Assembly (NCBI GenBank): GCA_027067055.1
Contig: JAMOMK010000104.1
Span: 59,572-123,571 of the forward strand
Direction of reading: 5' to 3'
DNA: 64,000 nucleotides
Origin: Lysobacterales bacterium
GTDB taxonomy: Bacteria > Pseudomonadota > Gammaproteobacteria > Xanthomonadales > Marinicellaceae
The position numbers and the translations under genes are program-made. The notes below the pieces were generated by a model, which made no database searches, was not told the DNA's origin, and saw only the letters and a program-made list of their open reading frames with translations. Of this stretch, positions 5,981 to 54,604 are shown in pieces; position 1 is the stretch's first letter, and each line of letters starts with the position of its first letter.

Positions 5981-6119
5981 TGAAAATAAACATGATAAAG
6001 TTGGTGAGGAGATTTTAGCCTATCTGTATTTGATAAACAATTAACAAATTAAAAAACCCCCAGCTAAAGCCAGGGGCTGCCAGTATTTCAACTGGCAAGA
6101 GAGAGAAGTCTAAAACTTT

Positions 6120-6683
6120 TTAAAATTCAGCTACTTGAACATTAACCTGAATTCTAACCCTGTCACCAGGATGATTCTGCATTCTAGTATGGTAAGTTCT
6201 ACCAATGTATTCATAGGCTACATCGTATCCAGTGATGCGTTGTTCTTCATAATAATCACGCTGTGTATAACATTGTCTACGGCTATTACGATTATTGTGT
6301 CTAGAATTTGAATACCTAGAGTTGTAACGTCTATTATTTCTATCTGTACCAGATCCGATAGCAGCTCCAGCAATAATCCCTACAGCTGTTGCAGCATCTC
6401 GACCGCGACCATCACCAAATCGGTTACCTAACAAACCACCGATTATTCCACCGAGTACAGCTCCACCTCCGCTACTAGTTCGGCGCTCTCCATAAGATCT
6501 TCCACGAGGACCTCTGTTTCTGTCTTCACAGACTCTTCTGTTTTGTGGTACACGAATTGTTTCATAAATTGGTTGCACATCAACTACAGGAGCATAAGTG
6601 TATTCATCATAACGACCCGCACTTGCGAAAGTTGCAGCCATCATCAAAGTCATTCCTGCTAATATATTTCTAATGTTTTTCAT
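6120..6683 (-). CDS. Glycine-zipper 2TM / 17-kDa-antigen-like outer-membrane lipoprotein, Arg/Asn-rich
   Basis: Signal peptide MKNIRNILAGMTLMMAATFASA. GAVLGGIIGGLLG and GIIAGAAIGSG glycine zippers. Low-complexity RNNRN tail. Confidence 0.6.
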   Translation of the reverse strand: MKNIRNILAGMTLMMAATFASAGRYDEYTYAPVVDVQPIYETIRVPQNRRVCEDRNRGPRGRSYGERRTSSGGGAVLGGIIGGLLGNRFGDGRGRDAATAVGIIAGAAIGSGTDRNNRRYNSRYSNSRHNNRNSRRQCYTQRDYYEEQRITGYDVAYEYIGRTYHTRMQNHPGDRVRIQVNVQVAEF

Positions 6684-6900
6684 GTTATCACCATTTGGTT
6701 TTTAAAATCTTGCGCCCACTTTATCGCAATAACAATGAATGAAAGCTGAATAATAGAAAGCAAAAATTACAATACCTAGATGAAATCAATCTATATGAGC
6801 GTTGTAGCCTATATGTTTATGGTAAGATTTTGTAGGTTTAATAAGTAACAAAAGACGTAAGGAGAGGAATTTCGACTCGTAAGTGTCAATATTTAGTGCA

Positions 6901-6935
6901 TAAAAAAGCCAGTAGCGCCTGTTCTCGCTACTGGC
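6901..6935 (-). terminator. Strong intrinsic terminator on the minus strand (10-bp stem GCCAGTAGCG/CGCTACTGGC followed by UUUUUUA)
   Basis: Read directly: on plus, taaaaaa then gccagtagcg-cctgttct-cgctactggc. A second 7-bp hairpin at 6940-6959 lies immediately 5' on the minus strand. Confidence 0.55.
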
Positions 6936-7023
6936 TTAAGCACAACCGTGGAGTTGTGCAATCCCACTAAAATTGCTACAGTCGGAGATTTGACCAAACT
7001 CGCATCGTAGCATTTACCCACGA
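6901..7023 (-). ncRNA. Candidate small RNA or 5' leader: TATAAT -10 box at 7035-7030 (minus) and two 3' hairpins ending in the terminator at 6901
   Basis: Inference from promoter-like TATAAT with AGTTTA 16 nt upstream, no ORF, and a tandem hairpin + U-run. It could instead be an attenuating leader of the glycine-zipper gene, whose start is 218 nt further downstream. Confidence 0.2.
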
Positions 7024-7402
7024 GCTTCCATTATAGGAAAAAACAATTGTTTAAACTGTGTAAGATTACACAATAGAATAAGTAAAATCATGAATATTCA
7101 ATTCACTAGATGAGTAGTTAGTTTTAGAAACAAAAAAAGGCCCCAATACTAGCATCGTCACTATTGCTATTCGCACAGGTATCAACAGACGTTAGATATA
7201 GATTCTGAAGCTGATACAGTTAACTACTCTCAAATGACTGCAACTCAAATTAATCGCACTGTAGAAATAATAATTTTGTTATGGCTTTATCTTTTTGAAG
7301 CACTTCAAGTCATCTAAACATATGCCGCCTTCGTGTTACATTAGTAACAATATATTTAAGAAAACCTTTTCCTTAAGGCAAAGGCCTCTTAAATGGAATA
7401 AG

Positions 7403-7455
7403 AGAGATACGGTCATCATATTTCCCGTACTAGACCTGTATCTCTTTTATTTTTT
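7403..7455 (+). terminator. Hairpin (AGAGATACGGTC...GACCtGTATCTCT) followed by TTTATTTTTT. Plus-strand oriented, and possibly also serving sucD on the minus strand.
   Basis: Read directly. The T-run is on the plus side only. Confidence 0.4.
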
Positions 7456-7467
7456 AGCTTTACAACA

Positions 7468-8340
7468 TTAAGAAACTAATTTCTTGATTGCTTCACCAAG
7501 CAAAGTTGGCGACCTTACTGTTGTAACACCCGCTGCCTCTAATGCTTCGTACTTTGCTTGTGCTGTGCCTTTGCCACCTGCGACAATTGCACCAGCATGT
7601 CCCATGCGCTTGCCTTCAGGAGCGGTAACACCTGCTATATAAGAAACAACTGGCTTGGTTACATGTTGTTTTATGTATTCTGCCGCATCTTCTTCTGCCG
7701 AACCACCAATTTCACCCACCATAATAATGCCGTGGGTTTCTGGATCTGCTTGAAACAATTTTAAACAATCAACAAAGTTCATACCTTGAATAGGGTCACC
7801 ACCGATACCAATACAAGTTGTTTGACCTAGTCCGACTTTGGTTGTTTGATGAACCGCTTCATAAGTTAATGTTCCAGAACGTGAAACAATGCCGATGTTA
7901 CCCACACGGTGAATTGCCCCTGGCATAATGCCAATTTTACATTCGCCAGGAGTGATAACACCTGGGCAGTTTGGTCCGATTAAATTAATCTCAGGTTTGG
8001 TATCTAAAACCGACTTAACTTTCATCATGTCTAATACAGGAATACCTTCGGTGATACAAATAATCACTTTAATACCGGCATCAACAGCTTCCATAATTGC
8101 ATCAGCTGCAAATGGAGGTGGCACTAAAATCATACTTGCATTGGCACCTGTTTCTTTAACAGCATCAACTACTGTATTGAAAACTGGACGATCCAAATGC
8201 GTTGTTCCGCCTTTTCCGGGAGTAACACCACCTACAATCTGTGTGCCATAATCAATAGCTTGCTCTGAATGAAATGTGCCTTGAGATCCAGTAAAACCTT
8301 GAACTACAACCTTTGTGTCTTTATTAATTAATACGCTCAT
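7468..8340 (-). CDS. sucD: Succinyl-CoA ligase (ADP-forming) alpha subunit
   Basis: Full-length match to the SucD pattern ([24 protein letters not shown]..., catalytic His loop GHAGAI). Confidence 0.95.
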
Positions 8341-8349
8341 TGTTTTCTC

Positions 8350-9510
8350 CTATGCTACAGCTGCGACAGCTTTATTGGCAGCATCATCTAAATCTTCAGC
8401 TGCAATAACAGCTAAACCACTTTGTTGGATTAATTCCTTACCTTTTTCTACATTTGTTCCTTCTAAACGTACAATGATTGGCTGCTTAACACCCACTTCT
8501 TTAATCGCATCGATAATGCCTTGTGCAATTAAATCGCAACGCACGATACCACCAAAAATATTAACCAGAATTGATTTAACATTTGGGTCTTTTAAAATAA
8601 TTTTAAAAGCAATGGCAACACGTTCTGCTGTTGCTCCACCACCCACATCTAAGAAGTTAGCTGGATCGCCACCTTTAAGTTTAATCACATCCATTGTTGC
8701 CATAGCAAGACCAGCTCCGTTGACCATACAAGCAATATTGCCATCTAATTTGATATAATTTAATTCGTGCTCGTGAGCTTCTGCCTCTGCTGGGTCTTCT
8801 TGGGTTACATCACGCATAGCGGCTAATTTTTTATGCCTGAATAATGCATTGTCATCAATAGCAACCTTGGCATCCAATGCCACAACATCATCATTGCCAT
8901 CAATAATTAATGGATTAACCTCTACAAGTGACAAATCATTTTCATGGAACATTTTGTGCAATGCCATCATAATACCTGTTAGTTGGCGTGTTTGTTTGGA
9001 GCTTAAACCCATATTGAAGCCAACTTTGCGGCACTCATAAGGAAACAAACCTTCAACATTTTCAACAACAATAGTATGAATAAGCTCTGGAGTTGTGCGT
9101 GCCACCTCTTCAATGTCAACACCGCCCTCGGCTGACACTACAAAAGAGAGGCTTTTATTGGCTCTATCAACCAATAAACTCATGTAAAGTTCCTTTTTAA
9201 TATCTGCCGCTTCGGTAATTAAGACTTCATTAACAGGCAAAGCCATACCACCTGTTTGGTAAGTCGTAATTGTCATGCCAAGCATATTGTTTGCGTTTTC
9301 TTTAACATCGGCTAATGTTTTGCAAAACTTAACGCCACCTGCTTTACCGCGACCACCTGCATGAACTTGAGCTTTTACTATCCACGCTTCACAATTTAAT
9401 TTTTCAGCAGCGACCACTGCCTCTTCTACTGTTCTTGCAACGATTCCGCGAGGAACTGGAATGCCATAGGCTTCAAATATCTCTTTGGATTGATATTCAT
9501 GAAAATTCAT
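8350..9510 (-). CDS. sucC: Succinyl-CoA ligase beta subunit
   Basis: [17 protein letters not shown].. ATP-grasp N-terminus. Immediately upstream of sucD. Confidence 0.95.
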
Positions 9511-9777
9511 TAGATACCCCTAATTTTTCTTGATTGAATGAAGCTTGTCATTATACTCTATTTTTTATGGATTTATTACAAGATAATAGTTAATAAATAA
9601 GATTACTCAAGTGTAATTATTTTTTAGATTTTAACAGCCATCACAAAAAGTAAAACCTTCGTCACAAAAAAGGAATGATAAATTGATAAGATAGTTGTTC
9701 ATTAATTTAAGAAAATCGTGTAAAGTACAGATATATATAAGAAATTTATTTAAATATTCACCCAAACTTTAAAAAAA

Positions 9778-11493
9778 ATGACTCAAACACCACCAAAAAT
9801 TATGTTAAATGGAACCCTGAAGAAGCTTATTGCTTCTTCAGTACTAACAGAAGAAGCGGCAATAGATGCAGTTCAAACATCTAAAAAACGGCGTATTCCT
9901 TTATTTACCTATTTGGTTGAAAACAACATCGCCCCTGCAAGTGAATTGGCTTATATTTCATCCCAAGAATACGGTGTTCCTTTATTCGATATTTCTGTAA
10001 TGGATCTAAAAACACTGCCATTAAAACTTATCGAAGAAAAACTTATTCATAAGCATAATGTTTTACCTTTGTATCAAAGAGGAACAAAATTATTTATTGC
10101 TATTGCAGACCCTGTTAATGTGACAGCCATTGAAGAGGTAAAATTTCACACCAATATGGCTGTTGAACCCATCGTTGTTCCACACGATACTTTAGTTTCC
10201 ATAATTGATGAAGCTTTAAGAGAAGCTGATTCAATGATGGACGAGGATGAAGATGACGAAGGGTTGGAGGACCTAGACTTTGAAGACACTACAGATGTTC
10301 AAGAAGACACAGCCGACAACTCAAGTGATGCAGATGACACCCCGATTGTTAAATTTGTCAACAAGGTCTTATTAGATGCTATAAAACGCGGAGCATCTGA
10401 TATTCATTTTGAACCTTATGAAAAAAACTATAGAGTCCGATACAGAATTGATGGCATGCTCAAAACAATGGCTCGCCCACCTCAAAGCATGACCATGAAA
10501 ATCTCTTCACGCATCAAGGTGATGTCCCGACTAGATATTGCTGAGAGGCGCATTCCTCAAGATGGACGAATAAAATTAAACTTATCAAAAAAGAAGTCTA
10601 TTGACTTTCGTGTCAGTACTTGTCCAACACTGTTTGGTGAAAAGATTGTTATGCGTATTTTGGATGCCTCTGCGGCAAGAATGGGTATTGATATGTTGGG
10701 CTATGAGCCTGATCAAAAAGAGTTGTTTATTAATGCCATTCACAAACCTTACGGAATGGTACTTGTAACAGGTCCTACAGGAAGTGGTAAAACTGTATCA
10801 CTTTATACGGCTTTAAATATACTTAATGTCGATGGCACTAATATTTCAACGGTTGAAGATCCTGTAGAAATACGTGTTAACGGTATCAACCAAGTACAGC
10901 AAAATGAACGTCAAGGCATGACCTTTGCTGCCGCACTTCGTTCTTTCTTACGTCAAGATCCAGACATCATCATGGTTGGTGAAATTCGTGATTTAGAAAC
11001 AGCAGAAATTGCTATCAAAGCAGCACAAACAGGGCATATGGTTTTATCAACATTGCACACCAATAGCGCACCAGAGACAATCAGTAGACTAATGAATATG
11101 GGCATAGCTCCTTTCAATATTGTTTCAGCAGTGTCAATCGTTATTGCCCAAAGACTAGGACGGCGTTTGCACGATTGCAAACAAGTTGGAGAATATCCAG
11201 CAGAGGCCTTATTAAAAGAAGGCTTTACTGAAGATGATATCAAAGACATTCAGATTTACGATGCCATTGGTTGCCGCAAATGTTCTTCAGGCTTTAAAGG
11301 TCGCGTTGGCATCTACCAAGTCATGCCAATGTCTGACAACATAAGGCGCATTGTACTTGCTGGCGGCAATGCACTAGAGATAGCTGACCAAGCATTAAAA
11401 GATAAAATACCTGATTTAAGACAATCAGCATTATTAAAAGTAAAAAATGGCATTACCAGCTTAGCTGAAGCCAACAGAATAACGGTGGATTAA
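9778..11493 (+). CDS. pilB: Type IV pilus assembly ATPase PilB (GspE family), with a long acidic linker
   Basis: GspE N-terminal domain, Walker A GPTGSGKT, tetracysteine CRKC..., and an Asp/Glu-rich segment DEDEDDEGLEDLDFEDTTD. Confidence 0.9.
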   Translation: MTQTPPKIMLNGTLKKLIASSVLTEEAAIDAVQTSKKRRIPLFTYLVENNIAPASELAYISSQEYGVPLFDISVMDLKTLPLKLIEEKLIHKHNVLPLYQRGTKLFIAIADPVNVTAIEEVKFHTNMAVEPIVVPHDTLVSIIDEALREADSMMDEDEDDEGLEDLDFEDTTDVQEDTADNSSDADDTPIVKFVNKVLLDAIKRGASDIHFEPYEKNYRVRYRIDGMLKTMARPPQSMTMKISSRIKVMSRLDIAERRIPQDGRIKLNLSKKKSIDFRVSTCPTLFGEKIVMRILDASAARMGIDMLGYEPDQKELFINAIHKPYGMVLVTGPTGSGKTVSLYTALNILNVDGTNISTVEDPVEIRVNGINQVQQNERQGMTFAAALRSFLRQDPDIIMVGEIRDLETAEIAIKAAQTGHMVLSTLHTNSAPETISRLMNMGIAPFNIVSAVSIVIAQRLGRRLHDCKQVGEYPAEALLKEGFTEDDIKDIQIYDAIGCRKCSSGFKGRVGIYQVMPMSDNIRRIVLAGGNALEIADQALKDKIPDLRQSALLKVKNGITSLAEANRITVD

Positions 11494-19475: not shown

Positions 19476-20222
19476 TTAACTTGATGTGATTTTAATAGTT
19501 TGTGATAAAGCATAAAGTGCATTATGGTGACTTGAGCTTTGTAAGTTATTACTCAACAAAGTGAATTGTATCAGCCATTTGTTTTTAAATATTGCTCCTT
19601 TGGTTGTATAGCGGTACTTAGGCATATATTCATTACTAGTAAACGTTGTTATTGCACCTTTTCCATTATTTACATTGAAATTTCGAATATTTACCTGTGT
19701 CTCTTTTGACTTTTTGACAAACCGACTACCTAGCAATTGAACCAAATCATCTATCTCTTTTTGGCTAAAGTTTTTATTGTCTGGAAAGACAAAATCAATC
19801 ATCAAAGAAGCCTTTGAGCCTGCTTGCTGATTATTCATTTTAATGTGGTATAACTTATTACTGTAAACTTTTTTAAAATATTGCCATTGCTTAGGTAGAT
19901 TAATCACCATACGATAATGACCGACAGTAGCGTGTAAAACCGCGCTATTTGTTGATTTGTATTCGGTGCTTTTAATTCTCCCTGGGCTTTTAATGACTTT
20001 TTGTTGCGTTTTCTTTGTAATTTTTTGTTTGATCACAGCTTTTTTCTTCGGCTTTACTGTGACTTGATGATTTTTTTTAAGCTTGAGATTATAAACATCA
20101 ACACTGCATTTTTCCTCCTGAAATGAAACCGTACCATTTGCCAAAATACAGCGATGTATTTCGAGTTTTTTTGCATAAATCACACTTGAACAAAATAAAG
20201 TTAAAACTATTAACAACCTCAT
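19476..20222 (-). CDS. Hypothetical secreted protein (248 aa)
   Basis: Signal peptide MRLLIVLTLFCSSVIYA. Basic and Lys-rich. No recognisable domain. Confidence 0.5.
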   Translation of the reverse strand: MRLLIVLTLFCSSVIYAKKLEIHRCILANGTVSFQEEKCSVDVYNLKLKKNHQVTVKPKKKAVIKQKITKKTQQKVIKSPGRIKSTEYKSTNSAVLHATVGHYRMVINLPKQWQYFKKVYSNKLYHIKMNNQQAGSKASLMIDFVFPDNKNFSQKEIDDLVQLLGSRFVKKSKETQVNIRNFNVNNGKGAITTFTSNEYMPKYRYTTKGAIFKNKWLIQFTLLSNNLQSSSHHNALYALSQTIKITSS

Positions 20223-20223
20223 G

Positions 20224-21225
20224 TTAATTATTACAGTAATTATTTAAATTCAATAATAGCTCTTTTTTTCGTTCACTATTTGCAAAACTGCCATTAATGG
20301 CATTTTTAGCCATTTGGATTATGCCTGCCTTGGTTACCGCAGTGTTTTCGACAATACTAAGCATATTTTCGGTCAGATATGCATTAAAATGAGCGGGATC
20401 ATCTGAGTGAATACTAACATTTAAGCCTTTATCTAGCATTATAGGCAAAGTGTGTTGCGACATATCTTTAAAGATTTTTAATGCCACATTTGATTGTGGG
20501 CAAACAGTTAATGGCAATTGTGTCTCAACCAAATACTCCACTAACCTCTCATCATCCAGACAACGTATACCATGGTCAATACGCTCAACTTTGATGTCTT
20601 TGATTGCAGACCAAATATAATCAGCAGGAGCCTCTTCACCCGCATGGGCTATCACATGAATGCCTGCATCACGAACCTTTGCAAAAGTGTCTTTAAACAG
20701 AGACGGCGGATAACCGACTTCGATAGCAGAAAGACCAATCGCTAATATTTTATCTTTAAAAGGCAACATCAGTTCTAAATCTTGTTGTGCCACATCATTG
20801 CCTAAATGACGAATAAAACAGGGCATAAAACCACCTGTTATTCCGTATAGTCTTTTAGCATCGATAAAAGCACTATGCAAAGCGTTAATAACAAACTCTG
20901 GTGGATACCCATAATCCACATAAGTACGAATATCAGAATGAATTTCTGTGTGTTGGATATTTTGTTCCACACATTTTTTAAAATACGTCATGCACACATC
21001 ATATAAGTCTTGCTCCGACTTAATCACACGTGTGCCAAGCATGTACATATCAATAAATTCAGTCAAATTATTAAATTTGTACGCTGCTTTGAGTTCATCA
21101 ATATTGTTGTATCCAATCTTATAATCATTATGATGTGCCAACTCCCACAAGGTTTCAGCTTCCATCGAACCCTCAACATGCATGTGAAGTTCAACTTTTG
21201 GCATTTTTTTAATAAATTTTTTCAT
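20224..21225 (-). CDS. add: Adenosine deaminase
   Basis: PKVELHMHVEGS zinc-binding motif, SIHSDDPA, and HG..A..E. Confidence 0.85.
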   Translation of the reverse strand: MKKFIKKMPKVELHMHVEGSMEAETLWELAHHNDYKIGYNNIDELKAAYKFNNLTEFIDMYMLGTRVIKSEQDLYDVCMTYFKKCVEQNIQHTEIHSDIRTYVDYGYPPEFVINALHSAFIDAKRLYGITGGFMPCFIRHLGNDVAQQDLELMLPFKDKILAIGLSAIEVGYPPSLFKDTFAKVRDAGIHVIAHAGEEAPADYIWSAIKDIKVERIDHGIRCLDDERLVEYLVETQLPLTVCPQSNVALKIFKDMSQHTLPIMLDKGLNVSIHSDDPAHFNAYLTENMLSIVENTAVTKAGIIQMAKNAINGSFANSERKKELLLNLNNYCNN

Positions 21226-44755: not shown

Positions 44756-45298
44756 TTATTTGAATTTATTACAAAAAAACCCACTTGGCAAAAGTGGGTT
44801 TTTCATTTGCAGGGTGCTACTTAGTGCCCCACCAAAATCAAGCATTAATTCTTTGATTTTATTTTCTGACTTTTCAGCTCTCATTGCATACCAGCTGATG
44901 ATTTCACTATCACTCATTGAGTCAAGGGATGTCGCTATCGCGCGGTAGGTATTAACCCGGAACCCGGTAATCAATGGGGTCAAAGCATTTGATTTACCTT
45001 CCTTTTTTATGAATTCAACGCTTCTTTTGAGCCTTGCCTTTAAAGGAGCTATAGAGGTCAACACCCTTAAATGCCAAGTCATTGTTTTAATTAAATATTT
45101 GACAACAAATTGACAACATCTATAAAAGCTTTCTTGATTAATAAAAAAACCACCGCTAGGGTTGTGTTTGATATAAGTTTGAAGACGTGACATTTCTGCT
45201 CTAATTGCATGGTGTGAGAGGTCTTCGAACTTGAGTTTAACAAAAATGATTAATGTTATCCAATTGTATTTAATCAATTGGTGGAATAAAGTTTTCAC
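44756..45298 (-). CDS. Hypothetical 180-aa ORF downstream of Fic; its last 15 codons are encoded by the greA terminator hairpin
   Basis: ORF only; may be spurious or a gene remnant. Confidence 0.3.
   Translation of the reverse strand: MKTLFHQLIKYNWITLIIFVKLKFEDLSHHAIRAEMSRLQTYIKHNPSGGFFINQESFYRCCQFVVKYLIKTMTWHLRVLTSIAPLKARLKRSVEFIKKEGKSNALTPLITGFRVNTYRAIATSLDSMSDSEIISWYAMRAEKSENKIKELMLDFGGALSSTLQMKNPLLPSGFFCNKFK
44772..44801. terminator. Bidirectional intrinsic terminator (A-run, ACCCACTT-ggca-AAGTGGGT, T-run) after greA
   Basis: Read directly. Confidence 0.6.
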
Positions 45299-46415
45299 TT
45301 TCTAATTGCTGAATCAACCCTCTCATAAGATAGTTGTTTTGAAATGATACATAATATTCTCGACCTTTTTCCTTGGTTGGCGATATTAATTTGCTAGATT
45401 TCAGCTTAGCTATTAATAAAGTTATTTGCCTTGTTGATAAGTTGAGTTTTAATTTGCTTATATCAAGTGATTTGAATGTTTGTTTTACAACTCCCATTTT
45501 CAATACCTTTGCTTCTGTAGCAGTAATTAACTCGCGTTCACGCCCTTTACTAATAGCTGGTTTAAGAATGTTTGCGACCAAGTAATCATGGTCAAGTAAC
45601 TTATTGATTTTTGAAATTTCAGCACTGACACCTGTTAGCACATACTCGCACCATTGAAGCATCGAATCTTCAGTTCCTCTATCTGCAATTGATAGCATTT
45701 TATAATACATATCTCTATCGTTACAAAAAACAGCGGTAGGATTGAGTAATTGTCCATCTTGCACCCTAAATCCATATTTAATCAATAAAGCGTAAGTCAA
45801 TAGCCTAACCACACGACCATTGCCATTACCAAATGGATGAATCCAAACGAACCTATGGTGGGCAATAGCCACTTTTATTAAATCAAATTTTTCTTTATTA
45901 TCATCATTGATAAAGTCAACCAACTCGTCCATGTAAGGTTGAACCATATGTGGTTCAGGTGGCGTATGTTTTGATTGTGAAATATCAACTTGCCATGACC
46001 GGTAAGCACCTGGGGTTTTATCGCCTTCATTTTTTAAATTTGTAACAGTAAGTTGATGCAATTCTCGAATGAAGTGATTAGTGATAGGAGTTCCAGTTTC
46101 AATGCTTTGTTCGATATATTCCATTGCACGTTCTACATTGGCAATTTCCTTAAATGTATCAGTAGAATTTTCCTTTTGTTCAATCTTAGTTTCAATGTAT
46201 TCAGATATGGTTGTTCTATTGCCTTCAATACGTGCAGAACCCACACTTTCCAGTAAATGAAATATCTTTTTTAACTGAAAAAATAGATAAGGTGATGTTG
46301 TGCCCCGTAATTGTGAACGTCTAAGATAATTCAACTCCATAATTGCATCTAGCAACTTAGAATCAAATGCTGGGCTGACTAATTTTAGTTCGTTTTTTGT
46401 ATTGTTTGTAGTCAT
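45270..46415 (-). CDS. Fic/DOC-family protein (AMPylase-type)
   Basis: Fic motif HPFGNGNGRVVR (HPFx[DE]GNGR). Confidence 0.8.
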   Translation of the reverse strand: MTTNNTKNELKLVSPAFDSKLLDAIMELNYLRRSQLRGTTSPYLFFQLKKIFHLLESVGSARIEGNRTTISEYIETKIEQKENSTDTFKEIANVERAMEYIEQSIETGTPITNHFIRELHQLTVTNLKNEGDKTPGAYRSWQVDISQSKHTPPEPHMVQPYMDELVDFINDDNKEKFDLIKVAIAHHRFVWIHPFGNGNGRVVRLLTYALLIKYGFRVQDGQLLNPTAVFCNDRDMYYKMLSIADRGTEDSMLQWCEYVLTGVSAEISKINKLLDHDYLVANILKPAISKGRERELITATEAKVLKMGVVKQTFKSLDISKLKLNLSTRQITLLIAKLKSSKLISPTKEKGREYYVSFQNNYLMRGLIQQLESENFIPPID

Positions 46416-46626: not shown

Positions 46627-47210
46627 GTGTATCTTATAAGTTACAATACCCAAATGATTGAAATTATCAAATATGCAGCAGAACATGACTGGTGTCCTTT
46701 TGATATTTGGTTAGATGGTTTAAAAGATCTAAGAGCAAAGGCTCAAATACTGGTAAGGTTAAATAGGCTAGAACTAGGTAATGAAGGTCATTGGCGGTCA
46801 GTTGGTAAGGGCGTTAGAGAATTAAAAATATCAGTCGGCAAAGGCCTGTACAGAGTGTAAAAGTATTCTGATGACGAGTATAAATGGCATAAAATACGCT
46901 ACTATTACTGCGTATCGTCCTTGATACTTGCCTACATCCATGTAGGTTTACATGAAAATCCTTTCCATAAGGATTTTTCGTTGAAAAACTTGGAATTAGC
47001 CAGCTAGTCACAGCGCTTTCCACCTCTATTAGCGAACTTTCTACTCATTTTTCTTTCGCCCCATAATACTTTCACATTCTGTATTGGGTTTATTATGGTT
47101 GGACTGGTAAAGAAATCGTTTTATTATTATGTGGTGGTGATAAATCCACGCAAGACAAAGACATTAAAAAAGCCAAACAATATTGGAGTGATTACAATGA
47201 GCAAAGCTAA
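46627..47210 (+). pseudogene. Disrupted HigB/RelE-superfamily toxin ('addiction module killer', COG3657-like)
   Basis: The first 77 codons are intact (..RAKAQILVRLNRLELGN..VGKGVRELKISVGKGLYRV) and then hit a stop. The homologous C-terminal segment ..TGKEIVLLLCGGDKSTQDK.. reappears about 240 bp downstream in another frame. A further frame change precedes ..KKAKQYWSDYNE, which overlaps the antitoxin start. Confidence 0.55.
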
Positions 47211-47481
47211 AGCATTTAAAACAAGTGATTATTTAAAATCAAATGAAGACAGAGCCGAATATTTAAAAGCCATCATGGCACAAAATAATGAAGGCTTGCT
47301 AATGCTTGCCATTCGTGAAATCATTGATTCTATGGGTGGTATTGGCAAACTAGCTAAGGAAACTGGTTTAGCAAGGGAAAGTCTATACCGTACATTTAGC
47401 AAAAAAGGAAACCCAACTTATAATACTTTATTCAAAGTATTGGATAATATCGGTTTACAATTGAGTGTATCAGTTAAATAG
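47197..47481 (+). CDS. HigA-like HTH antitoxin ('addiction module antidote protein', COG3636-like)
   Basis: MSKAKAFKTSDYLKS.EDRAEYLKAIM.. followed by an HTH (LAKETGLARESLYRTFS). Start at ATG 47197. Confidence 0.7.
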   Translation: MSKAKAFKTSDYLKSNEDRAEYLKAIMAQNNEGLLMLAIREIIDSMGGIGKLAKETGLARESLYRTFSKKGNPTYNTLFKVLDNIGLQLSVSVK

Positions 47482-47610: not shown

Positions 47611-47663
47611 AAAAAATGGTGCCCGGTCTCGGAATCGAACCAAGGACACGAGGATTTTCAATC
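47611..47663 (-). repeat. attR: 53-bp direct repeat containing the 3' 47 nt of tRNA-Phe (a duplicate of 54523-54575)
   Basis: Exact match read by eye: aaaaaatggtgcccggtctcggaatcgaaccaaggacacgaggattttcaatc at both sites. Confidence 0.85.
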
Positions 47664-47845
47664 ACAAAATGCCAATAATTCATAACAAACAACAACTAAT
47701 AAAAACATATAATACAATAGGTTACAATAATTTAATTGTTATATTTTATTATCTTTTATTACCACAATTTATACTTAATTGTGGCACGAGTGTGGCATTC
47801 TCTTAGCTTGTTATTTAATAAATATTTTTTATGTATGTTAATTAC

Positions 47846-49708
47846 TTATTTACTTATTGCTTTTACTATTCTATCTGGGTTAATCAATACATCACGCAGT
47901 AATAATTTATACGGAAACTGTTTATGTTTGTTAGATTTCTTAAAACTCTCAAATATTTTAATTAGTGATGATGCAGTCATTAGTGATAAATCTAAGTCGC
48001 TATCAAGTTCACAGTCCTCTATAAAATCATCACTGAAATCTGGTGCAATTAATAACATTTTTCTTACTTCAAAATTATGTTTCTTAGCTAATTCATAATA
48101 AGCTTTTAGTTGTCTAGAGACTGATGAAAATTTATTATATCCACTCTCCTTAATGGTTTTACATTCTATAATGATGTAGTCATTGTTTTCTAAATTAATA
48201 AGAATATCCATTTTATCTTTTTTAGTATTTATTTTCTTTCTTAGTGATTCATCAACATTAAAACCTAATTTCTCAAAAATATCTTTTGTAAGCTCTTCAA
48301 ATTTTATTCCAAGTTCGCTTTCCTTAATTTTAATGCCATTTTCCTTTAAAGCATTTAAATTTCTAAAACCAATATTTTCAAAGTTTTCAAAATATAAATT
48401 CTCAGTATCTCTATAATTATCTAGTATATTTAAAACCTCATCCCCTCTTTTCTTAATATCATTTTTCTCACAAAAATCTAACAACTCCTTATGCTTTGTC
48501 AGATAAAGAATATCTCTAGGTTTAATATTGTAATCAAGTAATAATGTACTTTTTAAAACAAACTCCTCTTGTAACTCGAATGCTTCTTTAATTTGCTTAT
48601 TCAGTTTAGGCAAAGTTCTATTTAAATCCTGTAATAGTTTCTCATAACCATCTATTGAAATTCCAACTTTCTCATCTTTTTCTTTGCTTTCAAAATAATT
48701 AATTAAGTTGATAATTTTATCATCCAATGTAATACCTTTGAGTACGGTTTTTGAATTTGAAATTTTACTCCAAATATTATTAACATATTTCTTTTTGGTA
48801 GTTAAATTTGTTCCTTCCTTATGGACTGAACTTGTTAATATAGTTGTAAGATTAACACCTTCTTTTATAACTTCTTCAATTTTATCTTCTGCACTTAATA
48901 GTTTATTAATATTATGTTTTTTGGCAATTATATTAATTTCAGGAATTCTAAAGTTTTTCAAAACTCTTCTTAAATATTTATCAGCAACATCTTTTCCTCT
49001 GATTTTTCTTAGAATTTTAACCATTTCATCAGCAACATAAATTGTATTCAATTTCTTAGAAAAGAATATCACACCAATATTTTTAAGGTTATTAATTATC
49101 TGAATGATATCCATTTTAATAATTGGAATAACCCTATAGTTAAGTAACTTTATTTCTTCTTGTGATAGTTCAAGCTTTTTTGATAGTGTGATTAGAATGG
49201 ATAATTCATCATCTGTAATTTTTGAATCTCTATTATTTAACAAATCATTTTTATATGCAGTAGTTACACATGAGTGGTAAATACTATAATCTCTTTTTCT
49301 TTCATATGTTAATTCTGATTTTTCATCCTTAATTGATACCTGAATATCTTTAACTTTTTTCTTTAGGTTCTTTAATTCTTTGTCATACAATCTTGAAAAC
49401 CAATCCAGTTTCATAATATTGTTGCCATCTTTAGCAATGATATCTATTAGAATGTCTAGTTGTGATGATGTATCAATAAATTCATCTTTGATAGATTTTG
49501 CGAATTCATTTGCAATTAATTGGAATATTTTAGAAATATTTAAGCTATCAAATGACTTTAATCCTTTGTCTGAAGAGCTAATGATTTTATTTATTTCTTT
49601 GAAGTTTTTCGGCTTCTCTTTTTCACTAGATATAATATTGTCAATTATTTTTATGAATGCATTTTTTTCTAGAGAACCTAAGTTATCCAATATTTTTTCA
49701 AGTTTCAT
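47846..49708 (-). CDS. Large orphan protein (620 aa from the ATG with an AGGGA RBS) with a C-terminal PD-(D/E)xK nuclease-like motif. Candidate defence cargo.
   Basis: C-terminal ..NDYIIIECKTIKESG.. (D-x-ExK). Extremely AT-rich, Lys/Asn/Ile-rich. No other recognisable domain. Confidence 0.6.
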   Translation of the reverse strand: MKLEKILDNLGSLEKNAFIKIIDNIISSEKEKPKNFKEINKIISSSDKGLKSFDSLNISKIFQLIANEFAKSIKDEFIDTSSQLDILIDIIAKDGNNIMKLDWFSRLYDKELKNLKKKVKDIQVSIKDEKSELTYERKRDYSIYHSCVTTAYKNDLLNNRDSKITDDELSILITLSKKLELSQEEIKLLNYRVIPIIKMDIIQIINNLKNIGVIFFSKKLNTIYVADEMVKILRKIRGKDVADKYLRRVLKNFRIPEINIIAKKHNINKLLSAEDKIEEVIKEGVNLTTILTSSVHKEGTNLTTKKKYVNNIWSKISNSKTVLKGITLDDKIINLINYFESKEKDEKVGISIDGYEKLLQDLNRTLPKLNKQIKEAFELQEEFVLKSTLLLDYNIKPRDILYLTKHKELLDFCEKNDIKKRGDEVLNILDNYRDTENLYFENFENIGFRNLNALKENGIKIKESELGIKFEELTKDIFEKLGFNVDESLRKKINTKKDKMDILINLENNDYIIIECKTIKESGYNKFSSVSRQLKAYYELAKKHNFEVRKMLLIAPDFSDDFIEDCELDSDLDLSLMTASSLIKIFESFKKSNKHKQFPYKLLLRDVLINPDRIVKAISK

Positions 49709-49842
49709 TTTACTATCCCTTTTTATAATATGACCTCTAAAACAATAAATTTCACAAATATAGAACAATAAATTTTTGATTTAGTGGATGTTCATTCCAA
49801 GTATATCATATAGAAATTAAATTATTAATAATATTGAAGATG

Positions 49843-50361
49843 TCATTTTCCGTTTGTAAGTGCAGAAAGAGACTTTTCTATCATCTTTTGGCTCTCAGCT
49901 CCCATTTCTTGCCATTGTTCAATGCTTAATGGCTCTGTGGTGACTATGTAGCCTGTTTCCCTTACATTTGTTGTAATATTTGAATCAATAGCTTTACGGC
50001 TTGCCCATTGCTCGGGTTGACGGTTATTAAGCCAATATATGCACGCTACTACATCAGGCGGATAGTGTTTAATGAATGGTGTCTTGGTTATTTTACCTTG
50101 ATAGTTGCTTATATGGGTTTCTTCATGGCTGTATCCAATGGCACGTTCTGCCAGTGCCCTTTCAACTTTCCTATCAAAATCTTGTTTACTTCTTTTTAAG
50201 GACTTGCAAAACTCTGGATATTTTATTTTCCATCGGTTTATTGTTGACTCATTCACATTGAAAAATTCACCAATTTGGTAATCAGTAAAACCATGTAAGC
50301 ATAGATTGCTTGCTTGCTCTATGTATTCTGTTTTAAATTTTGTTGGTCTTGTCATATTCAT
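49843..50361 (-). CDS. Phage terminase small-subunit-like protein (Terminase_2-like HTH)
   Basis: MTRPTKFKTEYIEQASNLCLHGFTDYQIGEFFNVNESTINRWKIKYPEF resembles TerS N-terminal HTH domains. Confidence 0.55.
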   Translation of the reverse strand: MNMTRPTKFKTEYIEQASNLCLHGFTDYQIGEFFNVNESTINRWKIKYPEFCKSLKRSKQDFDRKVERALAERAIGYSHEETHISNYQGKITKTPFIKHYPPDVVACIYWLNNRQPEQWASRKAIDSNITTNVRETGYIVTTEPLSIEQWQEMGAESQKMIEKSLSALTNGK

Positions 50362-50604
50362 TTTTATTGTTCATTAAATTATAGTTGTTTTTTTGGAAGC
50401 AAGGGCTGTTAAACCCTTGCCATAGGTTTTTATGTGGTTAGTGGCTTTTCTATTTAATCCAATGCCAATTTTTTAATAATCCTTTCACATTGCTTTAGGA
50501 TGCAAGCCTTTTTAATTAAAGGCTTTGCTAGTGATTTATACTAGCGTGACTTTAACTGTGGCTTAGCTAATACAAAAACTAAAACAATATTAAGGGATTA
50601 TTTT

Positions 50605-51081
50605 TTATAAAATATTTACCTCCCTTACTAAACTGTATTTCATTTGCTCAGGATATAACTGTTGCTTATAGTCTTTTAATACGAAACCAACTGTAATTTC
50701 AATCGGTTGTTGTTGTAGCTTAGTTATAGGTATTTGGTCAAACCTGACTTTGGGATGTAATGGTAAAAGCTTATAGAAATCTTTGAGGAAATCACCTCTC
50801 GGCTTTACTATAAATTTACCTTTATTACGTGCTTTACCTTTTAGCTTTTTGACGTTGTAATATTTGGCTATATCAATACCAAAATATTCACCCTCGGTAA
50901 TTGTATAAATCAAAACAACTTTAGGTTGTTTAAATAATGTACCAGTAAACCACGTTTTCATAACGGCTTCATATTTGCCTTTTGGGATTAATGGAAGGTC
51001 TCCATTTTGTATATTATTGGTATCGTATGTGGTACAATCCAAATCAGAATGCAGTGGTATAACATTTGAAGTCTTTTTCAT
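50605..51081 (-). CDS. Hypothetical island protein (158 aa)
   Basis: ORF within the island; overlaps the next gene by 4 nt. Confidence 0.45.
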   Translation of the reverse strand: MKKTSNVIPLHSDLDCTTYDTNNIQNGDLPLIPKGKYEAVMKTWFTGTLFKQPKVVLIYTITEGEYFGIDIAKYYNVKKLKGKARNKGKFIVKPRGDFLKDFYKLLPLHPKVRFDQIPITKLQQQPIEITVGFVLKDYKQQLYPEQMKYSLVREVNIL

Positions 51082-51404
51082 GATTGCTCTCCATTCGATA
51101 TGAAAGTATCATCATTGGCAGCTTTCTCGTAAAAAGCTGCTAATGAATTTCTTGCTATTTTATGCATGTGTACAGGTAAGATATACCGTCCTGGTCTTGT
51201 TTTAATTGAATCCCTGTCAAGCATCGTGAATCGTATAGTTTCAATTTCCCATCCTTTTAGGATTAATTGTCTTTTAACTTCAGCTACATTCTGAGAGCCT
51301 ACTTTTGGCTTCAGGTCTTTAAGTGTTTCTGTTTTCGCTAATATGAAACTAATTAATCTTGCTTCTCTTTGCGTGTGTATAGGAAGTGTTATATTCTCGT
51401 ACAT
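51078..51404 (-). CDS. Hypothetical island protein (108 aa)
   Basis: ORF, coupled by a 1-nt overlap with the upstream alpA-like gene. Confidence 0.45.
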   Translation of the reverse strand: MYENITLPIHTQREARLISFILAKTETLKDLKPKVGSQNVAEVKRQLILKGWEIETIRFTMLDRDSIKTRPGRYILPVHMHKIARNSLAAFYEKAANDDTFISNGEQS

Positions 51405-51613
51405 TACGCGGCACTCCTATTGTTGTTAATAGAATCAAGCCATGTAAAAAACAGATTTTCATCTATTAAAATTTTCCGACCTATGCGCACGATTACACCA
51501 TGTTTATTTAAGCCGTTTGTTTCAGCGTTAAAGATTAAAGCTCTAATGCCACCATTTGTAAATGCTGTATTGTCATCAAGGAATTGATTGACAGATTTTA
51601 AATTTGTACTCAT
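51404..51613 (-). CDS. AlpA-family phage transcriptional regulator / excisionase-like
   Basis: ..GLNKHGVIVRIGRKILIDENLFFTWL matches the AlpA C-terminal pattern (G.R...W.E.E...W). Confidence 0.5.
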   Translation of the reverse strand: MSTNLKSVNQFLDDNTAFTNGGIRALIFNAETNGLNKHGVIVRIGRKILIDENLFFTWLDSINNNRSAA

Positions 51614-51805
51614 TTGTTCACCTATATAGTAAATTATTAATAATGTAGAAAACTATTCGTTTCTACTGTAATTCACAGCTGTTTAGCAGTTGTGAGTCTA
51701 TCATCATAATGAACTATGTTACCATTTCAAATGGTATTGAAAGTATCGAAATGTATCGATGGTATTGTCAGGTATTTGACATGGTATTAAGGGAAAGTAT
51801 ATGTT

Positions 51806-53095
51806 TCATTTTGCAAAAGAACATAGTTTTGCATCTCTAAAAAATGCATTAATAGTATTAGTTTTACGTGAGTCAAATAACTTTCCACTGAAACAATCAG
51901 GATATTCGTTATCTAAAAAATAATCCTCTAGTTCTTCCCATATTATATTTTTAGTTTTTCCTTGTAGTATAGTTTCTGTAATTCTTGAACATATTTCTAT
52001 GTTTTTAGATGCCAAATAATCTTTAAAAACACTCTCTCTTTGAATTTGTTCTTTTGATTTCTTTTTTTCCTGTTTAATTTTTTGAATGGGGTAATTTTTA
52101 TCTAGCCACTTATTGAATTTAATTGTATCAATTAGAATGTCTGAAATAAAATTATCTATCACTATTGATTTGCTGTGGTTTACCATAAAATCTATTTTTG
52201 TATATCTCTCTATCGCGGTTAGTGTATTTGATGTAATCGAACGTATTAGAAAATTTATTAACTTAACCTTTGTAATCATGTTTTCGTTAAACGTATATTT
52301 GTTGCTATTTGAAATTCTTTTAAAAATCATTTCAATTGCATATGGCACGGTTATGTAATTTTTTATTTCTTCAGTATTTTGTTTTTCTATTCCCTTGATG
52401 AATAAATTGTTAATTCTGTCAACTAGCTCGAGGTGTTCTTCATCTATTTCATCAAAAATTATAAATGCTTTTTTTAATACACCTGCCAATTTCGCATAAG
52501 AAAATATATCTTCATAATAGTAAAATTTTCGAATCTCTGGGAAATCTTTATAACCGATATTAAATGTTCTATTTTTAATACTTTCACAATATTTTTCTTC
52601 TAATATCTTGTCTTCAATTTCTTCATAGGTATATATGTCCGAGCCATATAAAATTTTATTTAAGTTTCTATAACTGACCATTAATTTTTTATGTGTCGAT
52701 TTCTCCCCATCAATTCTTGTATTCAAAATATCGAATATTACATATATATTTTTATCATTAAAACTGTGGTCATCAAGCTTAATACTTGTAGTTTCTGGCA
52801 GGGATGTAAAAGTTTTATCTTTTACCTCAATTATACAAATCGGCTTGTAGTAACCTTTTAGAATAAAGAAATATTCTTTGTCTCTAAAGTTTTTAGCCAC
52901 TACTGAATTATCCCCAGTGTAAAAAGCACCCAGTACTTCACCACTAATATGAAAATATGTATTTTTATCAATTGCTTTTTGGAAAGTTGGTATATTATTA
53001 AATTCAAAAATTACTTGTAATTGATTGGTTTCAATAAACTTGTTTTTTGGTGCTTCCTTAGGTATTTCCATATTTCTATCCAAATATCTTTTCAT
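51806..53095 (-). CDS. Large orphan island protein (429 aa) with an N-terminal ExK-containing beta-strand motif (KPICIIEVKDK)
   Basis: ORF overlapping the integrase 3' end by 20 nt. Extremely AT-rich. Possible PD-(D/E)xK-like motif, weak. Confidence 0.5.
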   Translation of the reverse strand: MKRYLDRNMEIPKEAPKNKFIETNQLQVIFEFNNIPTFQKAIDKNTYFHISGEVLGAFYTGDNSVVAKNFRDKEYFFILKGYYKPICIIEVKDKTFTSLPETTSIKLDDHSFNDKNIYVIFDILNTRIDGEKSTHKKLMVSYRNLNKILYGSDIYTYEEIEDKILEEKYCESIKNRTFNIGYKDFPEIRKFYYYEDIFSYAKLAGVLKKAFIIFDEIDEEHLELVDRINNLFIKGIEKQNTEEIKNYITVPYAIEMIFKRISNSNKYTFNENMITKVKLINFLIRSITSNTLTAIERYTKIDFMVNHSKSIVIDNFISDILIDTIKFNKWLDKNYPIQKIKQEKKKSKEQIQRESVFKDYLASKNIEICSRITETILQGKTKNIIWEELEDYFLDNEYPDCFSGKLFDSRKTNTINAFFRDAKLCSFAK

Positions 53096-54131
53096 TCATA
53101 GAAGCCACCACAGTGCTTGTGTGGCTATCTGATAGGTGTGCGTAACGCTTAACCATTTGTAAGGTCTTATGCCCTAGTATCTCGGCTATCTCAGCTAGGC
53201 TTGCGCCATCCATGGCAAGGTATGAAGCGGCTGAATGTCTAAGGTCGTGAAATTTAAAATCTTCGATTTCTGCCTGTGCCATTAAGTCAGTCCAAATATT
53301 ACGGATAAAATAGGGTGAAGTGGGTTTGTTACCATAGAAAACAAAATTGGTATCAATTCGCCTTATTGAATTATGCTTTTTTAATACTTCAAAGGCATGT
53401 CCTGAAATTGGTATCCTGCGTCTTTCGTCGTTCTTTGATTCGTGAATGATTAAATAACCCTCTCTTAAGTTTAGGTCATTCCATTTAAGATTGAGAATTT
53501 CGCCTTGACGCATTCCTGTGGATAAAGCCAGTACAATAATGGCATAAATATGTGGGTTTTTATATTGGCTTGCAGAATTTAAAAGTCGTTGCCTTTCATC
53601 ATCAGATAGAAACCGTACACGTCCACGCGGTTCTTTGGGTCTTTTAACCTTTCTCATGGGATTGTCATCTATCCATTCCCATTCATTAACTGCGGTGGTA
53701 AATACATGCGATAAAGCAGCCATATAGCGTACAACGGTTGACGGTGAGCGTTTTTTGCCGTTGGGTACTTTTTCAGTTAATAGTTTTTCTTTAATCTCAA
53801 CAATGCGACTTGCATTGATTTCTGATAGTAGATAAACACCCAATTCTTTTTTCCATCTTAATAATTGGGGGGTACGTTGTTTTATGCTTTTGGGTGTTTC
53901 AGGAAGTTTAACCTCTAGGTATCTATCAATCATTTCACCAAAGGTATGCTTTTTGGACTCAATGGTTTTGAAGTGCCTACCATGTCGAATATCGGATTCG
54001 GTATCAGATGCCCACTTTTTTGCATCGGTCAATCTGTGAAAGGTAGCTGTTTGCTGTGGATAGCCTTTTAATCTGATTTGTACTTGATAGGTGGTTTGAC
54101 CTTTAGTGGTTCGCTTTTTGATAGATGCCAT
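53076..54131 (-). CDS. int: Tyrosine-type site-specific integrase (P4-like)
   Basis: N-terminal SAM-like/arm-binding region. Catalytic R..H..R..Y context (HDLRHSAASYLAMDG...GHKTLQMVKRYAHL). Confidence 0.9.
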   Translation of the reverse strand: MASIKKRTTKGQTTYQVQIRLKGYPQQTATFHRLTDAKKWASDTESDIRHGRHFKTIESKKHTFGEMIDRYLEVKLPETPKSIKQRTPQLLRWKKELGVYLLSEINASRIVEIKEKLLTEKVPNGKKRSPSTVVRYMAALSHVFTTAVNEWEWIDDNPMRKVKRPKEPRGRVRFLSDDERQRLLNSASQYKNPHIYAIIVLALSTGMRQGEILNLKWNDLNLREGYLIIHESKNDERRRIPISGHAFEVLKKHNSIRRIDTNFVFYGNKPTSPYFIRNIWTDLMAQAEIEDFKFHDLRHSAASYLAMDGASLAEIAEILGHKTLQMVKRYAHLSDSHTSTVVASMNEKIFG

Positions 54132-54528
54132 TTGTATAATCCTTATTAACTAAGGACATTGTATAGTAAGTGACAATTAAACACAACATCGGATTAATAA
54201 TCCTAGTGTATAAAATGCACCATCCTTGCTATATAAGGCTTTTATCCTTGTTTGTGCAACGTTTTAGGTAATTTGCCACACTTGCAACACACTCACAACG
54301 AAAAACAAGCCACCACAGGTAAAATTTTTACCCTTTAAGTATTGAATTTTCAAGTACTGCACAGGCAATGGATTTAATTAAAAGTTGATTATGGTTTGAT
54401 GTGAATTGTTACTAAATAACGTGATTTCTTATTTTCAAGTGTGTTGAAAGTGTGGCATTTATAAAAAACAATAAGTTTTCATATTGTTTTTTATTGGTGT
54501 AAGTGATTGATTTGTAACGTTTAAAAAA

Positions 54529-54604
54529 TGGTGCCCGGTCTCGGAATCGAACCAAGGACACGAGGATTTTCAATCCTCTGCTCTACCGACTGAGCTAACC
54601 GGGC
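54529..54604 (-). tRNA. tRNA-Phe (GAA)
   Basis: Reverse complement GCCCGGTTAGCTCAGTCGGTAGAGCAGAGGATTGAAAATCCTCGTGTCCTTGGTTCGATTCCGAGACCGGGCACCA is near-identical to E. coli tRNA-Phe. Confidence 0.95.

Follow-up and report, generated by a model that had tools for sequence, protein, structure and literature searches.

What kind of mobile entity is a block of genes only 6.9 kb long, lodged at a phenylalanine tRNA gene in the genome of a Lysobacterales bacterium, and how could it move with so few genes? The block, here called the island, lies in a 64-kb stretch of contig JAMOMK010000104.1 (assembly GCA_027067055.1) that was analysed as a whole and is referred to as the window; coordinates are positions in this window, and L001, L002 and similar labels denote compared contigs or loci. 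The answer we favour is that the island is probably a helper-dependent minimalist phage satellite carrying defence cargo, a view known here from sequence alone and weighed below against several alternatives.

The island is a discrete, site-specific integrative element of 6.9 kb in the 3′ end of tRNA-Phe. Its ends and the recombinase beside them are as follows.

47611..47663, no strand: attR, an exact 53-nt copy made up of six A's and the 3′ 47 nt of tRNA-Phe
54523-54575, minus strand: attL, within and next to the intact tRNA-Phe(GAA) gene at 54529-54604 (ARAGORN, repeat search, Rfam)
53076..54131, minus strand: int, tyrosine integrase of 351 aa, not of the P4 type (Pfam, PHROGs)

The two copies of the direct repeat are spaced 6912 nt apart from start to start, and the repeat search and ARAGORN agree on the exact duplication of the tRNA 3′ end that the first-pass annotation had reported. 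The 29-nt core of the repeat has only these two sites in 64 kb, even with up to three mismatches allowed, against a chance expectation of 0; the tRNA, on the minus strand, scores 68 bits in Rfam. A repeated tRNA 3′ end with the intact tRNA at one end and a recombinase beside the att site, as in tRNA-integrated islands, is thus present here, the tyrosine integrase lying 391 nt from attL, next to the tRNA, where it had been placed initially. All seven open reading frames (ORFs) between the repeats are intact and on the minus strand, and the island is, as also claimed, far more AT-rich than the flanking core genes, with 29.9% GC (24.9% in the 620-aa gene and 26.3% in ORF429) against 40.8% in carB and 43.6% in tldD. 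Independent evidence for the boundary comes from L001, a metagenome contig that is 100% identical to window positions 51160-47610 and unrelated from one base past the repeat: because the identity stops precisely at the repeat's outer edge, the repeat marks a real recombination boundary. L004, from the same sample as L001, matches the tRNA/yggX side of the window with 100% identity; the exact island TerS protein is also encoded on other metagenome contigs, and identical copies of the island occur in several samples with differing flanks. The sibling island L103 occupies the same tRNA-Phe gene, adjoins yggX and carries the same repeat with a spacing of 7021 nt. The contigs of these relatives are metagenomic, and one derives from a hydrothermal vent.

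The second line of evidence is a gene for a small terminase subunit (TerS), the protein by which phages select DNA for packaging.

49843..50361, minus strand: terS, small terminase subunit homologue of 172 aa (170 aa if started at M3, nt 50355; PHROGs, phage homologues)

The homology is secure and had been correctly anticipated as a likeness to packaging proteins: the product matches phrog_309 at 8.2e-43 and is 52% identical to TerS of Acinetobacter Obolenskvirus phages and 43% identical to that of CUS-3, the similarity to functional phage TerS spanning the full length, and the AbP2 homologue is annotated beside the large terminase subunit (TerL) and portal genes. Proteins from IMG/VR contigs are 42-53% identical to it, and at least two of these contigs (L012, L013) have an adjoining TerL-sized ORF. 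No capsid, portal, TerL or tail gene was found in the island by Pfam or PHROGs, which bears out the reported combination of int and terS in the absence of capsid genes, and no TerL or portal gene occurs anywhere in the window, which speaks against a helper prophage there. The closest viral TerS, among the IMG/VR contigs L006-L008, is 148 aa long and 53% identical; in L006, a contig of 6.9 kb that begins with a 344-aa ORF, the TerS gene is not followed by a TerL-sized ORF, and this contig could itself be a satellite-like element and not a phage fragment.

The remaining island features, in order from the integrase towards attR, are given below.

51806..53095, minus strand: ORF429, gene contiguous with or overlapping int, a two-module near-orphan (start-site analysis, relatives)
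51404..51613, minus strand: gene for a 69-aa protein in the AlpA/Xis position (assigned by position only)
51078..51404, minus strand: orf108, conserved small protein (family, overlaps)
50605..51081, minus strand: orf158, signature gene of the family, kept in relatives
50362..50604, minus strand: structured noncoding element of about 230 nt, between orf158 and terS
47846..49708, minus strand: cargoA, 620-aa protein with winged-helix/SAP modules and a predicted C-terminal Mrr-like PD-(D/E)xK nuclease

Relatives recovered through homologues of orf158 reveal at least eight independent islands of 5.6-7.0 kb with a conserved gene order: int, an int-contiguous gene, a small gene in the AlpA position, orf100-109, orf155-159, the noncoding element, TerS, one or two cargo genes and attR. 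Among them are L103 (7.0 kb, tRNA-Phe), L017 (6.3 kb, tRNA-Ser, repeat spacing 6317 nt) and L015, whose size of about 5.6 kb is based on no more than a short motif repeated close to its ends. Genes for a primase, capsid, portal or TerL are absent from all of the islands. Around a constant centre the modules are exchanged. There are two integrase types, the 351-aa type of the window and a P4-type found in L015 and L017 at tRNA-Ser, and at least three unrelated gene families in the int-contiguous slot. Two or more unrelated families, in three PHROG groupings, occupy the TerS slot: the phrog_309 type in the window and in L108, where the proteins are 77% identical and occupy the same slot; two phrog_83 (P27-type) genes in L103; and GP3_package/phrog_606 proteins, which also score weakly against phrog_309, in L015, L017 and L019. 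The end slot of L103 holds as its cargo a HEC-09/NYN nuclease gene (PADLOC), which, together with Lamassu or SoFic genes beyond attR elsewhere, agrees with the initial statement that such elements carry defence-type cargo at variable positions. L002 combines two variants as a mosaic: its terS, orf158 and cargoA are 100% identical to those of the window, its orf108 is 83% identical and its 69-aa gene 68%. Judged from this shared architecture, the window island is a member of a rare, previously undescribed family of minimalist satellite-like elements.

Tandem TerS genes were observed in two of these islands. In L017 two GP3_package genes that are 51% identical lie in tandem at 6371-7231, and in L103 the two phrog_83 genes are accompanied by a related 93-aa ORF at 6039-7282. 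Such paralogues may reflect a hetero-oligomeric TerS or dual helper specificity.

The constant centre of the family consists of orf158 and the adjoining noncoding element. The orf158 protein is 70-92% identical in every relative, while its neighbours diverge past recognition by BLAST. The element (243 nt) retains a mean column identity of 71-75% in all seven alignable relatives and is kept even where integrase, AlpA and TerS are of other kinds. Each island has one copy of it, which invariably lies 3′ of orf158; that of L102 is truncated. On the sense strand the predicted RNA fold reaches −62.2 kcal/mol, compared with −38.6 ± 4.0 for shuffled sequences (z = −5.97); the antisense strand gives z = −1.53 only. 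The consensus structure has 44 pairs, with 91.8% of cells paired; in the terminal hairpin (helix 5, window 50399-50420) four of nine pairs show compensatory changes, and helices 1-3 vary from G-U to G-C or A-U in a way that preserves pairing on the sense strand only. Across seven related sequences these data are suggestive, though not proof, of a structured sense-strand RNA. Rfam returned nothing beyond chance-level matches (E >= 0.26). Since the element is linked to the invariant orf158, the two may form a cognate protein-nucleic-acid pair, and the element could serve as an origin, as a primer or regulatory RNA, or as a regulated leader of terS.

Other identities of the element were considered. 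A packaging (pac) site is unlikely, since the element does not vary along with the TerS family. A small ORF, such as the 41-aa ORF called there in L015, is at odds with indels among relatives that are not multiples of three, and a type III toxin-antitoxin system is ruled out, as there are no tandem RNA repeats.

Comparison with known satellites places the island close to several groups and inside none of them. The PICMIs of Vibrionaceae (minimalist chromosomal islands inducible by phages) fit int, a gene that overlaps int, alpA, a small ORF, prim and defence cargo into 6.1 kb, and are packaged as concatemers; their model makes a co-localised int, alpA and DUF3987/DUF5906 primase mandatory, treats the usual position beside fis as an optional marker and includes no TerS (Barcia-Cruz et al. 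2024; PMC10803314). The island shares with them a size of about 6-7 kb, six or seven genes, gene order, defence-type cargo at the far end, the absence of capsid-remodelling genes and marine hosts; it differs in having neither a primase nor a detectable alpA, in its location in tRNA-Phe and not downstream of fis, and in its TerS and its orf108/orf158/element module, the likeness seen here being one of architecture. Phage-inducible chromosomal islands (PICIs), which include SaPIs and the EcCICFT073 type, have a median of 9.5 kb and 15 genes with a primase-replicase, and the proteobacterial ones usually add a capsid-morphogenesis gene (PMC10085698). The island resembles them in carrying int at one end with the regulator next to it, in a TerS of the kind that redirects packaging in PICIs, in the absence of tail and lysis genes, and in where the accessory genes stand, behind terS and in the interval from int to the regulator. 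By profile, however, it has two of the five core PICI components (int and TerS), or three if the positional "AlpA" is counted: no alpA-, merR- or stl-type regulator match, no primase-replicase and no capsid-morphogenesis gene, the last being facultative in many PICIs, was found among its genes.

VEIMEs (integrative mobile elements encapsidated in virions) are small marine elements, many of which have a tyrosine integrase, AlpA and TerS homologues and no capsid genes; they sometimes lack recognisable replication genes, and their TerS is closest to that of environmental phages (Eppley et al. 2022; PMC9618062). They are defined by concatemers recovered from virus particles, unlike the island family, which is known from sequence and is likened to them by gene content. 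P4-like satellites have in common with the island the integration into tRNA genes, a defence hotspot beside int and a small excision factor of the Vis/AlpA type, and P4 also possesses a regulatory RNA. In contrast to them, the island has no alpha primase-helicase, no sid, psu or delta, no epsilon and no P4-type arm-binding integrase domain, and it carries its own TerS, whereas P4 uses helper cos sites. The initial label of a PICI/P4-type satellite therefore stands as far as gene order resembling that of small phage satellites is concerned, and falls with the formal definitions of PICI, PICMI and P4, which the island does not fit without a primase-replicase. By analogy, the island would work most like PICMIs and TerS-bearing PICI or VEIME elements, yet it lies outside their definitions.

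For induction, replication, packaging and defence we infer the following course. Infection by a helper phage, or its induction, would switch on the operon of the 69-aa gene, orf108 and orf158, upstream of which lies a conserved palindrome. Excision would be carried out by Int with the small DNA-binding protein and possibly the product of the int-contiguous gene, with the participation of the GTGTGGCA arm sites. The resulting circle would be amplified without a primase, orf108 and orf158 together with the adjoining structured element being candidates for this role. The island TerS would then recognise island DNA and recruit the helper TerL, so that concatemers enter unmodified helper capsids, as in PICMIs and VEIMEs, and the nuclease encoded by the terminal cargo gene would most likely protect both host and satellite from other phages.

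Several results weigh against this interpretation. No primase, helicase or Rep domain was found in the island ORFs with Pfam, PHROGs or NCBIfam; queries of IMG/VR with orf158 and with the element returned no viral contig and hence no indication of encapsidated copies. No helper phage was identified, the closest phage TerS being about 53% identical, and no true empty tRNA-Phe site appeared in a genome scan with a TldD query, where all matches listed had at most 60% identity, so that L001 and L103 served in place of an empty-site comparison. The 69-aa protein has no support as AlpA at the sequence level, with an hhalign probability of 1.3% against AlpA64 of the relatives, and a defence role of cargoA has to be proposed without a match to any PADLOC v2 model at E <= 0.1. 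Nor is TerS universal, as L102 has none and its orf158 is fused to the flank of a SoFic gene. The absence of a helper phage, of IMG/VR matches and of replication genes, as well as L102 with its missing TerS, would fit an ordinary tRNA-targeting genomic or defence island that forms no phage particles, keeps a TerS-like protein as a co-opted helix-turn-helix regulator or a leftover, and is seldom transferred, for instance through generalised transduction or transformation; the tRNA-Phe locus is, moreover, a defence hotspot anyway, with SoFic, HigBA or Lamassu beyond attR. Such an island is unlikely, even if it deserves serious consideration, in view of the unrelated TerS families, at least two in number, recruited independently to the same slot, the full-length homology of the window TerS to functional phage TerS, and a compact size and gene order like those of known minimal satellites. 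In particular, that different TerS genes have entered one position repeatedly speaks for packaging specificity as the selected function.

The phage origin of int and terS, and the membership of the 620-aa protein in a PHROG family, could also be accounted for by a decayed prophage that kept its integrase, a few early genes and terS. We regard this as improbable: the att repeats match exactly and no ORF is broken, identical copies stand in several samples between different flanks, the design of 5.6-7.0 kb recurs in at least eight islands and never includes TerL, portal or capsid, and orf108, orf158 and the element are absent from all phage contigs examined. Less probable again is an integrative mobilisable element that rides on a conjugative element by means of a cryptic origin of transfer, to which the structured element would correspond, with orf158 as an accessory protein. 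It would explain why a conserved, hairpin-bearing noncoding element adjoins a conserved small protein and why replication genes are missing; it leaves the TerS genes unexplained, no relaxase, coupling protein or other mobilisation gene was detected with Pfam, and both the strand-specific G-U pairing and the asymmetry of z-scores fit an RNA better than a DNA hairpin.

The helper-dependent satellite thus remains the preferred reading, and a bolder version of it may be formulated, which is tentative and on balance doubtful. In this version orf108, orf158 and the sense-strand RNA of about 230 nt mark a new family in which they confer replication or activation independent of a primase, through an RNA-primed origin or a P4-CI-like RNA bound by orf158; exchangeable TerS proteins retarget helpers; and cargoA is an undescribed single-gene anti-phage nuclease that has spread between Bacteroidota and Gammaproteobacteria. 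The surprise is limited by the fact that satellites of such a size have been described before, and what is new is the module of orf158 and the structured element, the swappable TerS slot and a widely spread, predicted nuclease of 617 aa. If the islands are true satellites, a tailed phage could be hijacked with a minimal kit made up of an integrase, some small proteins and an exchangeable TerS, but without a primase. Detectors in current use would miss such islands, as SatelliteFinder recovers only two of the five PICI core components. A fixed TerS slot filled by unrelated families would amount to a natural experiment in helper retargeting, the structured element, next to the best-conserved gene, offers a lead towards a new RNA or origin, and the disseminated nuclease is a candidate single-gene defence system.

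Several features of the recombination module deserve closer description. The integrase contains Int_N and Phage_integrase domains (the latter at 6e-35) and matches phrog_1 at 6e-74; a Pfam search found neither Arm-DNA-bind_3 (DUF4102, PF13356) nor Phage_int_M, both of which are present in L015 and L017, so that the P4 type originally assigned to the window occurs instead in the tRNA-Ser relatives. Integrases of L102, L103, L106 and L108 are 91-95% identical to that of the window (95% for L103), and association of this integrase with tRNA-Phe is demonstrated for L102 and L103. The following sites near the att cores are candidates for arm-type binding.

47779..47799, plus strand: attR-proximal motif TTGTGGCACGAGTGTGGCATT, candidate arm-type Int/Xis binding site, proposed from the distribution of GTGTGGCA
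54274-54293 and 54438-54457 (54274..54457), no strand: two 20-nt AGTGTGTTGNAAGTGTGGCA sites in inverted orientation, lying between int and attL, candidates for arm-type sites

The AGTGTGTTGNAAGTGTGGCA pair constitutes the inverted repeat I20, which is 95% complementary. The 64 kb contain three copies of GTGTGGCA, each no more than 250 nt from the att cores: two belong to the 20-nt inverted pair and one adjoins attR, and from this layout they are plausible arm-type sites. The 190 nt adjoining attR are 83% conserved in L103.

The int-contiguous gene ORF429 has its first ATG 20 nt inside the end of int, overlapping the stop codon; homologues start at M9, which is the more likely start here too (nt 53071) and yields a protein of 421 aa beginning 4 nt past the int stop codon. 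It is represented by four proteins among 1.8 billion, is split in L102 into 180 and 251 aa, which indicates two modules, and has a 55% identical homologue in L108; in L103 and L106 an unrelated gene of 419-433 aa takes its place. No PADLOC v2 defence model matches it at E <= 0.1. In most PICMI subfamilies a gene overlapping or contiguous with int (iolg/icg) is found, and ORF429 fits this by position; these PICMI genes are diverse and of unknown function, and that of the prototype is needed for excision (PMC10803314). Because its slot is that of the int-overlapping or int-contiguous gene of PICMIs, ORF429 may be core rather than cargo. Accordingly, of the two large orphans originally listed as cargo, the 429-aa protein remains a near-orphan with a different possible role, and the 620-aa protein is no orphan.

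The label of an AlpA-like regulator does not survive for the 69-aa protein other than as a positional one: it matches neither PF05930 (AlpA) nor PF12728 (HTH_17) even at E = 10, nor any other Pfam model. Its positional equivalents in L015, L017 and L019 do match PF05930, and the window protein has a Xis-like C-terminal pattern; by its position it is a probable small DNA-binding excision or activation factor. The neighbouring orf108 belongs to a family of 21 clusters among 5.8 billion, with no Pfam domain and no annotated homologue, and since it overlaps both neighbouring genes, by 4 nt and 1 nt, the 69-aa gene, orf108 and orf158 appear to form one operon. The orf158 family is rarer still, with only 10 clusters in 5.8 billion and no annotated homologue; the protein shows a weak match (8e-5) to phrog_7778, labelled "SSB", and its AlphaFold2 model is unusable (pLDDT 36). 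No meaningful match came from PDB profile searches with orf158, orf108, the 69-aa protein and TerS. Two copies of a short palindrome accompany these genes.

51633..51644, no strand: palindrome ATTATTAATAAT, a perfect, operator-like 12-bp sequence 20-31 nt upstream of the ATG of the 69-aa gene
49821..49832, no strand: second copy of palindrome ATTATTAATAAT, upstream of cargoA

These are the only copies in the window, where 0.06 would be expected, and both fall within the island. The palindrome recurs at an equal distance upstream of the equivalent of the 69-aa gene in L102, L103 and L106, which suggests a shared operator for this gene and cargoA.

Far from being an orphan, the cargoA protein has homologues, more than 2,792 in number, that share a uniform length of about 617 aa and 65-79% identity and occur in Flavobacteriaceae, Bacteroidales and even one archaeal metagenome-assembled genome; it matches phrog_34709 over its full length. 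Despite the PHROG match, a tblastn search of a phage collection returned nothing, and there was no match in IMG/VR. The gene is always solitary (in the window and at loci L020 and L021), and in two genomes with Bacteroidota-type gene content it stands alone beside gyrB or dnaN; many assemblies break around it into contigs of about 2 kb. Its uniform length, its 65-79% identity across phyla and its solitary occurrence suggest that it has spread recently and widely by horizontal transfer as a single-gene module, and its GC content makes it foreign even to the island. Matches to Mrr_cat are sub-threshold, at 0.016 for the window protein and weak in 18 of 29 homologues (best 6.6e-4); other homologues match SAP, HSDR_N_2, Card1 or NERD models. 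Residues D501, E515 and K517, candidates for a PD-(D/E)xK signature, are invariant. In the AlphaFold2 model (pLDDT 67, with 40-60 in the nuclease domain) structural similarity is confined to the winged helix. Taken together, cargoA is a candidate for a protein with a helical N-terminal region bearing winged-helix/SAP DNA-binding modules and a C-terminal Mrr-like nuclease, and as such a candidate single-gene defence nuclease. The defence-system prediction that the first-pass annotation had proposed for the large ORFs yielded nothing with PADLOC for either of them.

Outside the island, the flanking core genes were correctly named, with carB and greA on the left and tldD, together with yggX, on the right; greA is, however, separated from attR by 2.9 kb, which contain a SoFic-type Fic gene, a truncated HigB-like ORF and HigA.

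45270-46415, minus strand: SoFic-type Fic protein, outside attR (PADLOC SoFic, 6.7e-55)
46627-47481, plus strand: HigBA-like pair between attR and SoFic, with an intact HigA-type antidote (dnstrm_HI1420, 2.6e-22)

The Gp49/HigB-like toxin ORF ends prematurely after only 77 aa, with no continuation in another frame, and is probably a pseudogene. Between greA and the Fic gene lies a further ORF of 180 aa with a GTG start (44756-45298, minus strand), which overlaps the 3′ end of the Fic gene; parts of this ORF show 84-89% nucleotide identity in L102. Another SoFic gene (1.5e-113) is found downstream of the related island in L015. In L001 the DNA right after attR (3842-10865) encodes a serine resolvase, a complete Lamassu pair (LmuA 2e-110, LmuB 8.5e-206) and two protein kinases, and is possibly a second element integrated into attR. 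As the identical island is followed by Lamassu in L001 and by SoFic/HigBA in the window, the DNA distal to attR at tRNA-Phe is a strain-variable defence hotspot.

From the tRNA up to and including orf158, the locus L102 shares 82% identity with the window; then, about 95 nt into the element, its sequence passes into the stretch that lies upstream of the SoFic gene and in the window is outside attR; a 90%-identical copy of SoFic is in this way fused directly after orf158. A deletion of terS, cargo, attR and higBA, leaving an immobilised remnant, is slightly favoured, since no second att copy is detectable: a search between greA and attR, where a second or degenerate copy would indicate a tandem island, found none. 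Alternatively, SoFic may have been the cargo of an older island, the remnant of which was left beyond attR in the window.

Two observations concern the DNA beyond attR in L103. At 8926-9123 a fragment encodes the N-terminus of a P4-type integrase, a remnant of another element, and at 9399-11157 lie genes that match window positions 19494-21224 at 75%, from which it follows that synteny around tRNA-Phe differs between the hosts of the window and of L103.

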